NCBI GenBank assembly: GCA_035935655.1
Contig: DASYWW010000062.1
Location: 270,632-334,631, forward strand
Direction of reading: 5' to 3'
Length of the DNA: 64,000 bases
From: Candidatus Bathyarchaeia archaeon
GTDB lineage: Archaea > Thermoproteota > Bathyarchaeia > 40CM-2-53-6
Shown: piece by piece, positions 18,142-41,157 of the stretch
Layout of the letters: every line of letters begins with the position of its first letter
How positions within the stretch are numbered: the first letter of the stretch is position 1
Translations under genes and position numbers: made by a program
The notes under the pieces: model-generated
What the model saw: only the letters and a program-made list of their open reading frames with translations
Database searches by the model: none
What the model was told of the DNA's origin: nothing

Positions 18142-18259
18142 GGGCCCGTAGCTCAGCCAGGTAGAGCACCGGAAGAGCGGCGTTAGTGCTCTGGTGAGGC
18201 TTTTAGCCTTCGAAGGGGACACCCGGCTGTCCCGGGTTCAATTCCCGGCGGGCCCGCCA
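18142..18259 (+). tRNA. tRNA-Lys(UUU) with two introns flanking the anticodon loop; CCA encoded
   Basis: GGGCCCG-TA-GCTC-AGCCAGGTA-GAGC-A-CCGG[26 nt]G-CTTTTAG-C[15 nt]CCGG-CTGTC-CCGGG-TTCAATT-CCCGG-CGGGCCC-G-CCA. Total 118 nt, which is 77 nt plus 41 nt. An alternative stem (TGAGG/CCTTC) gives the same anticodon. Confidence 0.7.
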
Positions 18260-24309: not shown

Positions 24310-24789
24310 ATGGGGCCTAGTCAAATGTCGCGCCGCGCACTCCACGAAACACGGGTCCGAATACAGGGGCCACCAAGCCTTAACACAGGCGACCCACATA
24401 TCCCAACGAGAACCATCTTGGTGTCCATAATCCACTCACCACCCCAAGAGATCGTCGTCACCGGGCTCACCAGCTTCACCAGCCAAGCCAACCTCGCCTC
24501 CATGGTTGCCTTCGTCATGAATGTCTCCGGCCAACCACTCGCCCTCTACTGGGCCGAGGGCGTAGTCTTTCTCGCGGACTTCGTTGAACCTGAAGCCCTC
24601 CCCGAAGAGTACGTCAAGGGCCGAATCTACGCCTCCAACATATCCCACGCGCCCATGACAAAATACAACAATTTCGTCCGCGTCGGAAACATCGAAGTCC
24701 CAGTCATCGACGTAACCTCCAATATCGGCCTTCGCGATCTCGCACGGTGGATAAGAGAAAATCACCATCAGGATCCCGAGAAATCTTAA
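24310..24789 (+). CDS. hypothetical protein (coding status uncertain)
   Basis: 159-aa ORF between two tRNA genes with an equally long antisense ORF and no recognisable motif. Confidence 0.3.
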   Translation: MGPSQMSRRALHETRVRIQGPPSLNTGDPHIPTRTILVSIIHSPPQEIVVTGLTSFTSQANLASMVAFVMNVSGQPLALYWAEGVVFLADFVEPEALPEEYVKGRIYASNISHAPMTKYNNFVRVGNIEVPVIDVTSNIGLRDLARWIRENHHQDPEKS

Positions 24790-24819
24790 CTAGACGCGAA
24801 CCTCGCGTCTTGTCCGTGT

Positions 24820-25032
24820 CCCGGGGTAGCTCAGCCTGGAAGAGCTTCCGAGCCGCCCTCTGAACAAGTGGGCGACGAAGACGCTGTAGGTGTGCGCCCA
24901 GTGCGCGGCCACGTCAGCCTTACCAGGCTAACAGTAGACACCGGAGTGTCGCCGGAGAACCCCTAAAACCGGTTCGGCGAATTCAAAATAGAGGCCAAAC
25001 GGCCTCTAATGAGACTCCGGTCCCCGGGACCA
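24820..25032 (+). tRNA. tRNA-Tyr(GUA), C1-G72, with three to four insertions; CCA encoded
   Basis: CCCGGGG-TA-GCTC-AGCCTGGAA-GAGC-T-TCCG[32 nt]G-CTGTAGG-[50 nt]CCGGA-GTGTC-GCCGG[26 nt]TTCAAA[28 nt]T-CCGGT-CCCCGGG-A-CCA. Total 213 nt, which is 77 nt plus 136 nt. C1-G72 is the archaeal/eukaryal Tyr identity pair. An alternative parse gives three insertions. Confidence 0.65.
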
Positions 25033-27983: not shown

Positions 27984-28074
27984 CGGGCCCGCGGGGATTC
28001 GAACCCCGGACCTACAGCTCAACCCGCTCATAGCTTAGGGGGCTGCCGCTCTGTCCAGACTGAGCTACGGGCCC
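27984..28074 (-). tRNA. tRNA-Arg(CCU) with canonical 16-nt intron; position 33 is C
   Basis: GGGCCCG-TA-GCTC-AGTCTGGACA-GAGC-G-GCAGC-CCCCTA[AGCTATGAGCGGGTTG]A-GCTGT-AGGTC-CGGGG-TTCGAAT-CCCCG-CGGGCCC-G. A bulge-helix-bulge motif is visible, with bulges TAA and TGA and a central (C)CCC/GGG(T) helix. Confidence 0.7.
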
Positions 28075-29296: not shown

Positions 29297-30619
29297 TCAT
29301 TGTAGGGCATTTTGGACCTCATCTATTGCTGATGATAGCTTGACAGTCTTCTCTTCGCCTGTTTTCATGTCCTTCATCCGTACGCTTCCTTCCTTGATCT
29401 CTCTAGGACCCAAGACGAGAGATATTCTTACTTTCAAGGAGTCAGCGTATTCCAGTTGTTTGCTGAGTGGGCGTTGTTTGAGGTCGTGGTCAGTTCTGAT
29501 GTTTTGGCCGCGGAGTCCTTGGGCGAGTCTTACGGCTTCGTTCCAAACGCTTTCGTTCACTGTGGCTACGAAGACCTGCGGGCCTTGTTGGACGTTAGGG
29601 AAGAGGTCTTTTCGCTCTAGAGACAGCATGAGTCGTTCGAAGCCCCCTGCGACTCCCGTCGCTGGCATGTCTCGCTTTCCATAGATCTTGCACAATTTGT
29701 CGAAACGTCCTCCTCCGAAGATCGCGCCCACATCCTCTCCCTCCTTGTCGTAGGCTTCGAAGACTGTTCCGTCGTAGTAGCTTATTCCACGGACTATTCC
29801 GAGGTCGATCTTGATCTTTGTCTTTTTTCCGAGGGATGCCACGCGGTTCACTGTTCCGGAGAGTTCTTTGAAGCCCTGGTGGGTCATCTCGCTTTTGGGC
29901 AGTTTGCTCTCCAGCTCCCCCAGGACTTCATCTGGGTTTCCGCCAATGTCGGCGAAGCCGAGGATTCGTTTGACCTTGTCTTTGGAGAGGCCGGCTCCGG
30001 TGAATTCTCGCTCTGCCTGTTCGGATCCTATTTTTCCCATCTTGTCGATTATCCTGATCAGTTGGTCGAGTTCATTCTGGGACTGTATTCCTAGACCGCG
30101 TAGGAAGCCTTCGACGAGTTTGCGGTTGCTGATCTTGATGATGTGCTCTTTGAGGCCCACTGACTCTAGGATGTCGGAGCCAAGAGAGATGATCTCTGCG
30201 TCGGCCGATGGGTCGGCAACTCCGTAGATCTCGGCATCCCATTGCGTGTGGTATCTGTATCGGGCGAATTGTGGTTCGTCGTAACGCCATACGCCGCCGA
30301 TGCATGAGATCTTGATCGGTTCAGGGAGGTCGAACCGGTTTGCGACCATTCGGGTCATGCCTACTGTGAGGTCGAATCGTAGTCCGAGGTTTCGTTCCGC
30401 TTTGTCTTTGAACCAGTAGATTTCGTCCCTGACTGCTTGGCCCGATTTTGCCTCGAGGGTTTCGAGGTTTTCTACAGGGCTGGGCTCGAGCATCTGGAAG
30501 CCATAGTTCCAGAGCACCTGCCGTATCTTGTCTGTTAGCCATATCCTGCGGGACATTTCCTCCGGGTCAATGTCCCTCATTCCCCGCGGAAGAGTGAATT
30601 GTGTCTCTGACAAGCTCAT
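29297..30619 (-). CDS. hisS: histidine--tRNA ligase
   Basis: Class II aaRS motifs: ..LPRGMRD.., motif 2 ..WRYDEPQFARYRYHTQWDAEIYG.., motif 3 ..GGGRFDKL... Confidence 0.9.
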   Translation of the reverse strand: MSLSETQFTLPRGMRDIDPEEMSRRIWLTDKIRQVLWNYGFQMLEPSPVENLETLEAKSGQAVRDEIYWFKDKAERNLGLRFDLTVGMTRMVANRFDLPEPIKISCIGGVWRYDEPQFARYRYHTQWDAEIYGVADPSADAEIISLGSDILESVGLKEHIIKISNRKLVEGFLRGLGIQSQNELDQLIRIIDKMGKIGSEQAEREFTGAGLSKDKVKRILGFADIGGNPDEVLGELESKLPKSEMTHQGFKELSGTVNRVASLGKKTKIKIDLGIVRGISYYDGTVFEAYDKEGEDVGAIFGGGRFDKLCKIYGKRDMPATGVAGGFERLMLSLERKDLFPNVQQGPQVFVATVNESVWNEAVRLAQGLRGQNIRTDHDLKQRPLSKQLEYADSLKVRISLVLGPREIKEGSVRMKDMKTGEEKTVKLSSAIDEVQNALQ

Positions 30620-30638: not shown

Positions 30639-31160
30639 CTACTTTCCTTCGAAGCGTTCGGTATTCAATGTGTAATACACGATATCTGTACGCCTGTCGA
30701 TCACGGCGAGGACCAGATCCTTTCCGTCCTTGTTCGCTTTCGCAGAGAGCCTTGCGAGTTTTTCGAGTGTGGACTCTCCTCCCTCAAAGACAATTGATAC
30801 TTGTCTTCGGGTGGCTCCTTTTCCGAAGGTTTCGAAGTCGAAGCCTTCTTCGGATTCTCGAACCAGGTAGCCTCGGTCTCGCAGGTCTCGGTACACTAGA
30901 TACTTGGTCCATATTGTTGCTTTGCCAGTTGATAGTTTTGTGACAAGATTCTGGAGCGTTTTCTCCCTTCCTGTCTTTTCGTCTGTTACATGGGCTCGTC
31001 GTTTCTCGACGAGATAGAATGCTTCGTAGGGACTTAGGAAGAGCTTGTTGTCTGCTAGGGTTCCGAAGGCTTTCTCCCGGAGCTCCATGAGTTTCTCTGG
31101 TTCTTTCATGTAGACTTTGTTTTTGGAGAAGAAGGCTTCGAGAATTTCTAGCGTCATCAA
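30639..31160 (-). CDS. tRNA-splicing endonuclease family subunit, probably non-catalytic (structural)
   Basis: ..YLVYRDLRDRGYLVR..GFDFETFGKG..RRQVSIVF..KDLVLAVIDRRTDIVYY.. is collinear with M. jannaschii EndA ..YLVYKDLRTRGYIVK..GADFRLYERG..EHSVYLV..KLLIAVVDADGDIVYY... The catalytic Tyr aligns with Phe, the catalytic His with Gln, and Lys is retained. Confidence 0.75.
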   Translation of the reverse strand: MMTLEILEAFFSKNKVYMKEPEKLMELREKAFGTLADNKLFLSPYEAFYLVEKRRAHVTDEKTGREKTLQNLVTKLSTGKATIWTKYLVYRDLRDRGYLVRESEEGFDFETFGKGATRRQVSIVFEGGESTLEKLARLSAKANKDGKDLVLAVIDRRTDIVYYTLNTERFEGK

Positions 31161-31257: not shown

Positions 31258-32304
31258 ATGCCGGGAAAAGAACGAGACTCTCTTGAGCCCGTGAGATGGA
31301 AGAATGGAGTGCTGGAGGCCATTGATACTACGAAACTGCCGGCGAGGCTGGTGTATGTTCGGATGCGGACGGTGGACCAGGTCTGTTTGGCGATCCGTTC
31401 TATGAAAGTTAGAGGTGCGCCGTTGATCGGCGTTGTTGGCGCGTACGGTCTCGTGTTAGCCGCGATGGATCTCGGGGGCAAAGATCTGAAGCAGGCAAGG
31501 TCACTACTTCGCAAGTCCGCCGATGCTCTGATCTCTACGAGGCCTACGGGGGTGAATCTTCGCTGGGCTGTCGAGCGGACGTTCAAAGCGTCTTTGCGGG
31601 CTGACTCGGTCGCATCCCTTGGGGACGAGTTGAAGCGAGAGGCTGACGCGATTCTTCGCGAAGAGCTGGAGTCAGCTCGCAAGATCGGGCGTTTTGGCTC
31701 GGCCTTGATTGAAGATGGGGATACTGTGCTGACGCATTGCAATGCGGGGGCTCTAGCGACCGCGGGTTACGGTACGGCGTTGGCGGTGGTCCGGGCTGCG
31801 GTTGAGCAGGGGAAGAGGGTGTCGGTGATTGCGACGGAGACGCGGCCGTTGTTGCAGGGGGCGAGGTTGACTGCTTTCGAATTGGCGCGGGACGGGATCC
31901 CCGTCCGCGTCATCGCTGATAGTGCGGCTGCACAGTTGATGGCTCAGGGTGTGGTGGACAAGATTGTTGTGGGGGCTGATCGGATCTTGGGGACGGGGCA
32001 TGTTACTAACAAGATTGGGACGTTGCCGATTGCGTTGGGAGCGAAGTTCTATGGTGTTCCGTTCTATGTTGCGGCGCCTGTCTCAACGCTGGATCTCGTG
32101 ACGGATGTGTCTCAGGTGGTTATCGAGGAGAGGGATCAGCGAGAGGTATTGTTGATTGGGGGTAGGCGTTTTGCTCCGAGGAATGTTGGGGCTTTGAACC
32201 CGGCTTTCGACATCACTCCACCAGAGTTGGTTACAGGGATTGTGACGGATCGCGGCGTGGTCCATCAGCCGTTGGCGGAGAACATCCGGGCTATGTTTGG
32301 CTGA
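31258..32304 (+). CDS. mtnA: methylthioribose-1-phosphate isomerase / aIF-2B family
   Basis: ..AIRSMKVRGAPLIGVVGAYGL.. , ..THCNAGALAT.. , ..GADRI.. Confidence 0.8.
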   Translation: MPGKERDSLEPVRWKNGVLEAIDTTKLPARLVYVRMRTVDQVCLAIRSMKVRGAPLIGVVGAYGLVLAAMDLGGKDLKQARSLLRKSADALISTRPTGVNLRWAVERTFKASLRADSVASLGDELKREADAILREELESARKIGRFGSALIEDGDTVLTHCNAGALATAGYGTALAVVRAAVEQGKRVSVIATETRPLLQGARLTAFELARDGIPVRVIADSAAAQLMAQGVVDKIVVGADRILGTGHVTNKIGTLPIALGAKFYGVPFYVAAPVSTLDLVTDVSQVVIEERDQREVLLIGGRRFAPRNVGALNPAFDITPPELVTGIVTDRGVVHQPLAENIRAMFG

Positions 32305-41054: not shown

Positions 41055-41157
41055 TGGCGGGCCCGGTGGGATTCGAACCCACGATTTTGGGCTCTCTTCA
41101 CTCCGAAATAGATAGCTCCGAAGGCCCACGTCTTGGTCCTGGCTCGACTACGGGCCC
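41055..41157 (-). tRNA. tRNA-Arg(UCG) with canonical 24-nt intron; CCA encoded
   Basis: GGGCCCG-TA-GTCG-AGCCAGGACCAA..GAC-G-TGGGC-CTTCGG[AGCTATCTATTTCGGAGTGAAGAG]A-GCCCA-AAATC-GTGGG-TTCGAAT-CCCAC-CGGGCCC-G-CCA. Confidence 0.8.

Follow-up and report, generated by a model that had tools for sequence, protein, structure and literature searches.

The window (the whole stretch of DNA that was analysed, 64 kb in length) originates from a soil metagenome and carries a 213-nt tRNA-Tyr(GUA) gene on the forward strand at positions 24820-25032, which can be read directly from the sequence. The gene starts with CCCGGGG and ends with CCCCGGG-A-CCA, and thus contains the C1-G72 pair, A73 and the encoded CCA that had been claimed for it in the initial annotation. 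The C1-G72 pair and A73 are the tyrosine identity elements of archaea and eukaryotes. The arms read GCTC/GAGC (D arm) and GCCGG/CCGGT (T arm), with GTA as the anticodon and GTGTC as the variable loop. Removal of four blocks of 32, 50, 26 and 28 nt (136 nt together) leaves 77 of the 213 nt, as had been proposed, and ARAGORN recognizes the spliced 77-mer as tRNA-Tyr(gta) with a normal class I cloverleaf. In the unspliced 213-mer nothing was called by ARAGORN, and the locus was also missed when the whole window was scanned with ARAGORN and with Rfam, both at the gathering threshold and at E ≤ 10. This silence is due to the blindness of the tools to the unspliced gene and not to the absence of the gene. 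The exons and introns are listed in Table 1 together with the other features of the window.

Table 1. Coordinates of the tRNA-Tyr(GUA) gene and of other features in the 64-kb window
Feature	Position	Strand	Remarks
tRNA-Lys(TTT) gene	18142-18259	+	two introns
tRNA-Lys intron at 30/31	18173-18198	+	26 nt; perfect BHB CACC/GGTG, inner helix AGAGC/GCTCT
tRNA-Lys intron at 37/38	18206-18220	+	15 nt
Upstream ORF	24310-24789		
Promoter-like element CCGAGAAATCTTAACTAG	24776-24793	+	about 27-44 nt upstream of the mature 5′ end
tRNA-Tyr exon 1	24820-24850	+	acceptor 5′ strand, D arm, anticodon stem 27-30; identical in relatives
tRNA-Tyr intron 1	24851-24882	+	32 nt, position 30/31
tRNA-Tyr exon 2	24883-24889	+	G31 and anticodon loop C32-G37, anticodon GTA
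tRNA-Tyr intron 2	24890-24939	+	50 nt, canonical position 37/38
tRNA-Tyr exon 3	24940-24955	+	A38, anticodon stem 3′ strand, variable loop GTGTC, T stem 5′ strand
tRNA-Tyr intron 3	24956-24981	+	26 nt, position 53/54
tRNA-Tyr exon 4	24982-24987	+	T loop 54-59, TTCAAA
tRNA-Tyr intron 4	24988-25015	+	28 nt, position 59/60
tRNA-Tyr exon 5	25016-25032	+	T60, T stem 3′ strand, acceptor 3′ strand, A73, CCA (25030-25032)
tRNA-Arg(CCT) gene	27984-28074	-	one intron
Histidyl-tRNA synthetase gene	29297-30619		
EndA homologue	30639-31160	-	173 aa; Pfam PF01974 and PF02778
eIF-2B-family gene	31258-32304		
tRNA-Arg(TCG) gene	41058-41157	-	24-nt intron at 37/38; identified by eye

The anticodon arm had been proposed as TCCGG-CTGTAGG-CCGGA, with G at position 38. 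The placement of intron 2 within this arm had to be changed. The base preceding CCGGA is A in 35 of 35 homologues, and the base following CTGTAG is G, A or T. Since the former is invariant and the latter is variable, intron 2 is fixed at position 37/38, one base further to the left than originally placed, and the anticodon loop is CTGTAGA with A38. The G38 placement was rejected on these grounds. The T loop, given as TTCAAAT, is not contiguous in the DNA. It reads TTCAAA, followed by the intron and a single T, which places intron 4 at 59/60.

The four-intron parse was evaluated by a splice-aware alignment, in which the mature tRNA-Tyr of an independent one-intron relative from the Hecatellales (L033) served as the query. 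The spliced tRNA-Tyr of this relative differs from the 77-mer of the window at 5 of 77 positions. The alignment returned the identical four junctions with a score of 97. The scores of 200 dinucleotide shuffles were −8.3 ± 7.0 with a maximum of 9, placing the window gene about 15 standard deviations above them. The four-intron parse is therefore far beyond chance.

Including the tRNA-Tyr gene, the window contains four tRNA genes with a total of eight introns. The tRNA-Lys(TTT) gene was missed by both ARAGORN and Rfam, and its spliced 77-mer is called as tRNA-Lys(ttt). CCA is encoded in three of the four genes and is lacking in the tRNA-Arg(CCT) gene.

Occupancy of the intron sites among relatives

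Genomic relatives of the tRNA-Tyr gene were collected by searching one genome of each GTDB species for exact matches to a 26-nt segment of exon 1. This search returned 34 loci, nearly all of them in soil MAGs of 'Candidatus Bathyarchaeota/Bathyarchaeia'; two Hecatellales and one Brockarchaeota are also among them. All 34 parse to a 74-nt mature tRNA-Tyr plus tail, nearly identical to that of the window. Three of the genes (L002, L018 and L033) contain the 37/38 intron only, six contain two introns, one contains three, 23 contain four and one (L014, 253 nt) contains five. The fifth site is located at 44/45, where a separate bulge-helix-bulge (BHB) intron is inserted, and is empty in the window gene. 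In a second scan, JGI metagenome contigs were searched with the 3′ exon. It led to at least 39 further unique genes, at least 34 with four introns, at least three with three and at least two with five, and no introns outside the five sites were found among the JGI matches listed. Genomes and metagenomes together provide at least 74 genes with a near-identical 74-nt mature tRNA. Most of these genes have four introns and at least three have five. The five-intron genes, with introns at 30/31, 37/38, 44/45, 53/54 and 59/60, are L014 (positions 1447-1699 of DASRSU010000008.1), L061 (Ga0066710_100004312, 226 nt) and L074 (Ga0207646_10004839, 235 nt). They come from independent assemblies and differ in their intron sequences, and introns account for 66-70% of the gene.

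Intron 2 is occupied in all 35 genomic homologues. The three non-canonical introns are exactly absent in some of the relatives: intron 1 in L001, L027, L002, L016 and others, as well as in contigs of RNA and DNA runs, intron 3 in L028, L003, L008 and others, and intron 4 in L007, L010, L002 and others. These absences bear on a parse with three insertions, also considered in the initial annotation, in which the variable region is longer and part of the sequence read here as intron would be retained in the mature tRNA, as a long variable arm or some other extended element. A single sequence does permit several carvings of a cloverleaf, and a naive BHB scan of the 213 nt yields 45 candidate (i,j) pairs. 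Such a scan is nonspecific when used alone, and the specificity of the junctions comes from the relatives instead. Relatives with one to three introns have a 5-nt variable loop and a 7-nt T loop and lack the respective blocks exactly. The variable loop of the relatives has the same 5 nt, G/C-[T/C]-GTC, and the variable region is interrupted only by the 44/45 BHB intron. The alignment guided by L033 gives the same four gaps, and the tRNA-Tyr of archaea belongs to class I, in which the variable loop is short. As each non-canonical intron is exactly missing in at least one relative, the three-insertion parse was rejected and is considered very improbable. The claim of four introns thus holds, and a BHB motif is found at all junctions, as described below.

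The 213-nt arrangement might also be regarded as an assembly artefact, a chimera of fragments from different strains. Many strains sharing exon 1 are present in the same samples, which makes the setting prone to chimeras. The same order of four introns is, however, found in more than 20 independent assemblies from several studies and in RNA-derived contigs. Furthermore, contigs from two DNA runs, X1 and X2, match the window exactly from 24867 and 24908, respectively, past the 3′ end of the gene, with one base off in X2. A chimeric origin of the gene is hardly credible in view of this evidence.

Of the 33 assemblies matched by the exon-1 pattern, 32 contain it at a single locus. An intact second tRNA-Tyr gene, which the initial annotation had held to be incompatible with its reading, was not found within the 64-kb window. 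The MAG BA_2 (VBAW01) contains two different four-intron tRNA-Tyr genes, L001 and L003, with unlike sets of introns. The second one, on a contig of 2969 bp, has almost identical counterparts in other MAGs and could be either a true second copy or a binning error. Archaeal four-intron tRNA-Tyr genes were also encountered in assemblies labelled as 'Candidatus Dormiibacterota bacterium' (L017, DASPWZ010000045.1) and 'bacterium' (L008, JAJPJY010000001.1). L017 is probably mis-binned, since its tRNA-Tyr gene is the same as the one on a contig of a Bathyarchaeia MAG (L021). In the DNA run X1, the exon-1 31-mer shows a word depth of 157-263x versus 16-24x in the flanks, and several intron patterns branch off from it. 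This implies that many Bathyarchaeia strains with different sets of tRNA-Tyr introns coexist in one soil sample.

Splice motifs at the four junctions

In the BHB motif, the bases at positions −6 to −3 before the 5′ cut pair with the bases at positions −6 to −3 before the 3′ cut, and each cut is made after the second base of a 3-nt bulge. Relaxed forms of the motif, hBH and HBh′, are also accepted, and the motif classes have been described (PMC6379350). All four base pairs of the central helix are formed at each of the four junctions, CTTC/GAAG, CTGT/GTAG, CGCC/GGCG and TTCA/TGAG for introns 1 to 4, respectively, and both flanking helices are present at introns 1 and 2. MAFFT misaligned the groups with 44/45 and 53/54 introns when applied to full-length genes, so end-anchored pair tables and per-intron alignments were used for the comparisons. 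The 4-bp central helices were not predicted by RNAalifold on its own, which also placed the outer part of intron 1 in a different register. Thermodynamic folding of the full precursor gave no cloverleaf, and little weight was given to this result.

In intron 1, the bulges CG^A and AC^G (^ denotes the cut) surround the central helix. The first pair of the inner helix is GC in 18 and UA in five of the homologues, and compensatory changes are seen in 5 of 11 RNAalifold pairs. Intron 2 has the 5-bp anticodon stem for an outer helix, and its inner helix reads TGT/ACA. Two of the four pairs of its central helix are G-U, and in silico this BHB is thermodynamically the weakest of the four (+13 to +17 kcal/mol). 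Intron 3 contains the bulges GG^A and AA^T and a 5-bp inner helix, GAACC/GGTTC. It belongs to the HBh′ type, with a helix on the intron side only and no outer helix.

At intron 4, the T stem takes the place of the outer helix, exactly as the anticodon stem does at a canonical intron. The central helix of intron 4 includes one G-U pair, and its inner helix is TAGAGGCC/GGCCTCTA. Compensatory changes affect 5 of the 6 pairs of the inner helix among 23 sequences, the first pair being UA in ten sequences and CG in nine. With the T stem included, RNAalifold reports such changes for 7 of 11 pairs, two of which belong to the T stem. The helices of the 53/54 and 37/38 introns vary less than those of the 30/31 and 59/60 introns, and the intron segments that pair with invariant exon bases are conserved themselves.

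A hairpin of the form CAGCC-loop-GGC(T) is located inside intron 2 at 24907-24932, and in the homologues from Bathyarchaeia, Hecatellales and Brockarchaeota it is invariant. The CCAGGCT of its 3′ arm is complementary to AGCCTGG in the D loop of exon 1. In the MFE folds, the arm of the hairpin pairs with the D arm and not with the hairpin itself.

The intron 4 of the window differs from that of its relatives by one additional A (25008/25009), which separates the inner helix from the central one. With this base the 5′ bulge becomes a 3x1 internal loop, whereas the relatives possess an hBHBh′ motif with a clean bulge. The extra A was seen in DNA contigs of the two independent studies X1 and X2, and is therefore real. 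It is absent in all other relatives and is specific to the lineage of the window.

We consider it very likely that the 24820-25032 region is the functional tRNA-Tyr(GUA) gene of an uncultured soil archaeon of the Bathyarchaeia, with four protein-spliced BHB introns, which make up 136 of its 213 nt. Alternatively, the locus may be a decaying or non-functional copy, whose introns, at least intron 4, can no longer be removed, with the tRNA-Tyr being supplied by another gene. The loss of the clean 3-nt 5′ bulge through the extra A, the weak BHB of intron 2 in silico and the lack of spliced RNA in the contigs of eight RNA runs would agree with such decay. The conservation of the exons argues against it. 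In comparison with nine close relatives, the exons show no differences at 74 positions, also when only the 48 exon positions outside the search pattern are regarded, while the introns diverge by 10-13%. The variant with the extra A persists with intact exons in two independent studies, and the canonical helix-bulge-helix context at the 3′ cut of intron 4 is intact in the window copy. Broad-specificity endonucleases also accept relaxed motifs (PMC6379350). Finally, the window contains no other gene that could supply the tRNA-Tyr, and the relatives carry a single locus per genome. Decay of the gene is thus regarded as unlikely, and a functional gene with four removable introns is the preferred reading.

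Promoter, transcripts and splicing machinery

The promoter-like element CCGAGAAATCTTAACTAG overlaps the stop codon of the upstream ORF. It is nearly invariant in the copies from soil Bathyarchaeia despite their differing surroundings, and aligns with the classical BRE/TATA boxes AAAACTTATATG and AAAAGCTTATAAG, which are located at the same distance in non-soil relatives. This conservation suggests that the element is the promoter of the gene. Transcription would then be driven by a BRE/TATA-like element situated some 30-40 nt upstream.

Metatranscriptome assemblies were found to contain the gene in its unspliced form, from relatives with 93-95% identity. One RNA contig lacks intron 1, with 24850 joined exactly to 24883. 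Spliced joints, ends of mature tRNA and circular introns were not detected in the assembled contigs of the eight RNA runs. These contigs derive from ordinary RNA-seq, which rarely captures mature tRNA, and the missing joints therefore carry little weight. The interpretation of gene-length RNA contigs as discrete pre-tRNAs was dropped, as DNA runs show similar contig ends. The ends of the RNA contigs are probably breaks of the de Bruijn graph at shared exons, and the RNA contigs may come from DNA carry-over.

The four motifs are not independent of each other. Nucleotides 25-28 take part in the central helix of intron 1, but 27-28 are also needed for the anticodon stem that closes the motif of intron 2. 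Likewise, nucleotides 48-51 take part in the central helix of intron 3, and the motif of intron 4 is closed by the T stem, which requires nucleotides 49-53. Due to these overlaps, the four motifs cannot form simultaneously. In silico, forcing the BHB of intron 4 costs 6.5 kcal/mol in the presence of intron 3 and 0.8 kcal/mol after its removal. In the primary transcript, forcing the BHB costs 2.3 kcal/mol for intron 3 and 4.7 kcal/mol for intron 1. During splicing, the precursor probably has to refold at least twice. The removal of introns 1 and 3 is likely to precede that of introns 2 and 4, because the central helices of the former occupy the stems required by the latter. That some introns must leave before the next BHB is formed has also been stated by the authors of tRNAscan-SE (PMC8450103).

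An EndA homologue is encoded 5.6 kb from the tRNA-Tyr gene, between the genes for histidyl-tRNA synthetase and an eIF-2B-family protein. In comparison with the EndA of Methanocaldococcus jannaschii (1a79), the catalytic Tyr115 is replaced by Phe, the catalytic His125 is aligned with a gap between Arg and Gln, and Lys156 is kept. The homologue is 73-95% identical in the relatives, where it carries the same substitutions and is syntenic with the tRNA-Tyr gene. The conservation, the synteny and the shared substitutions point to a maintained non-catalytic subunit. Most likely, the protein serves as the structural beta subunit in an (alpha-beta)2 enzyme of broad specificity; the NCBIfam beta model gives it only 28 bits, far below the cutoff. 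The two EndA types that cut non-canonical introns are (alpha-beta)2 and epsilon2 (PMC5829648; PMC12397907). A catalytic alpha subunit was detected neither in the 64-kb window nor in related loci totalling 1.03 Mb, and no RtcB was detected in the window when its 71 ORFs with a length of 90 aa or more were scanned against Pfam.

We propose that the primary transcript is cut by the archaeal splicing endonuclease in the two 3-nt bulges of each BHB. The enzyme would be a broad-specificity (alpha-beta)2 heterotetramer, the putative beta subunit of which is encoded in the window. The exons would be joined by an RtcB-type ligase, and the spliced junctions are expected to read ...TTCCG^GCTGTAG^ACCGGAGTGTCGCCGG^TTCAAA^TCCGG... 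(here ^ denotes the joint). The predicted product is a 77-nt tRNA with C1-G72, A73 and the anticodon GUA, which is the archaeal tyrosine identity set.

Comparison with known intron-rich tRNA genes

The ordinary archaeal tRNA-Tyr gene has the same C1-G72, A73 and GUA and an intron at 37/38, to which the window gene adds three non-canonical introns. The one-intron relatives L002, L018 and L033 are of this ordinary type and encode almost the same mature tRNA as the window. Archaeal tRNA genes have been described with two or three introns in a 2019 review (PMC6379350) and with up to three in the tRNAscan-SE 2.0 paper of 2021 (PMC8450103), and the main texts of the literature searched contain no mention of four or five. 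The initial annotation had named three as the most reported in published surveys and held that four would be unusual. The latter assessment stands, but the ceiling is outdated. In wetland-soil Asgard genomes, over half of the tRNA genes contain multiple introns (Valentin-Alvarado et al. 2024, PMC11291895). Supplementary Data 4 of this study lists several tRNA genes with four introns from Atabeyarchaeia and Freyarchaeia: Arg-TCT and Ile2-CAT of Freyarchaeia are given as 4/4, and Trp-CCA of Atabeyarchaeia-2 as three introns by tRNAscan and four by R2DT. Four introns in one archaeal tRNA gene are thus rare and unusual, but not unprecedented.

Like the window gene, the Asgard genes come from uncultured soil archaea and have introns at non-canonical positions; they are only partly detected by tRNAscan-SE. 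They differ from it in the phylum (Asgard versus Bathyarchaeia/Thermoproteota) and in the isotypes. The Asgard tRNA-Tyr genes are listed with three, three and one introns, whereas the window tRNA-Tyr has four. The counts are given in the supplement, and an analysis of BHB motifs, covariation or presence and absence was not found in the part of the study at hand. The listed genes include none with five introns, in contrast to the relatives of the window gene. No report of five-intron tRNA genes, or of four-intron ones in Bathyarchaeia, was found in the literature, a search by which absence is not provable. The five-intron relatives and the presence/absence series across five sites are the more novel part of the present results.

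Two further groups of organisms are known for tRNA genes with several BHB introns. In the Thermoproteales, Pyrobaculum calidifontis for example has 71 introns in 46 tRNA genes (PMC8450103). The Thermoproteales share the combination of canonical and non-canonical BHB introns with the window gene, and theirs are linked to the broad-specificity (alpha-beta)2 endonuclease. They are hyperthermophiles with a maximum of three introns per gene, whereas the organism of the window is a mesophilic soil archaeon. With eight introns in four tRNA genes, a tiny sample, the window is denser in introns than P. calidifontis. The nuclear tRNA genes of the red alga Cyanidioschyzon merolae contain up to three BHB introns, and the flanking introns have been shown experimentally to be removed before the 37/38 intron (PMC3728597). 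This order is the same as the one inferred here for the window gene. The genes of C. merolae are eukaryotic and nuclear, have at most three introns and are in some cases permuted, in contrast to the archaeal gene described here.

The tRNA-Tyr genes of soil Bathyarchaeia may well be the most intron-dense tRNA gene family seen so far, and we lean slightly towards this view. Five introns in one tRNA gene would exceed every count that was found in the literature. Both the tRNA-Tyr gene and the two-intron tRNA-Lys gene are missed by ARAGORN and Rfam, and Bathyarchaeia MAGs annotated with such tools will therefore seem to lack tRNA-Tyr and other tRNAs. With its graded series of one to five introns and a mature tRNA that hardly varies, the family provides a natural experiment on the gain and loss of introns and on obligatory splicing order. 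It could be used to test by what route archaeal tRNA introns arise, whether mutually exclusive BHB folds enforce the order of splicing, and to what extent a motif may degrade and still be accepted by a broad-specificity endonuclease. Extremely fragmented tRNA genes occur beyond the hyperthermophilic Thermoproteales and the recently described soil Asgard archaea, and the multi-intron state is normal for the essential tRNA-Tyr of widespread mesophilic soil Bathyarchaeia.
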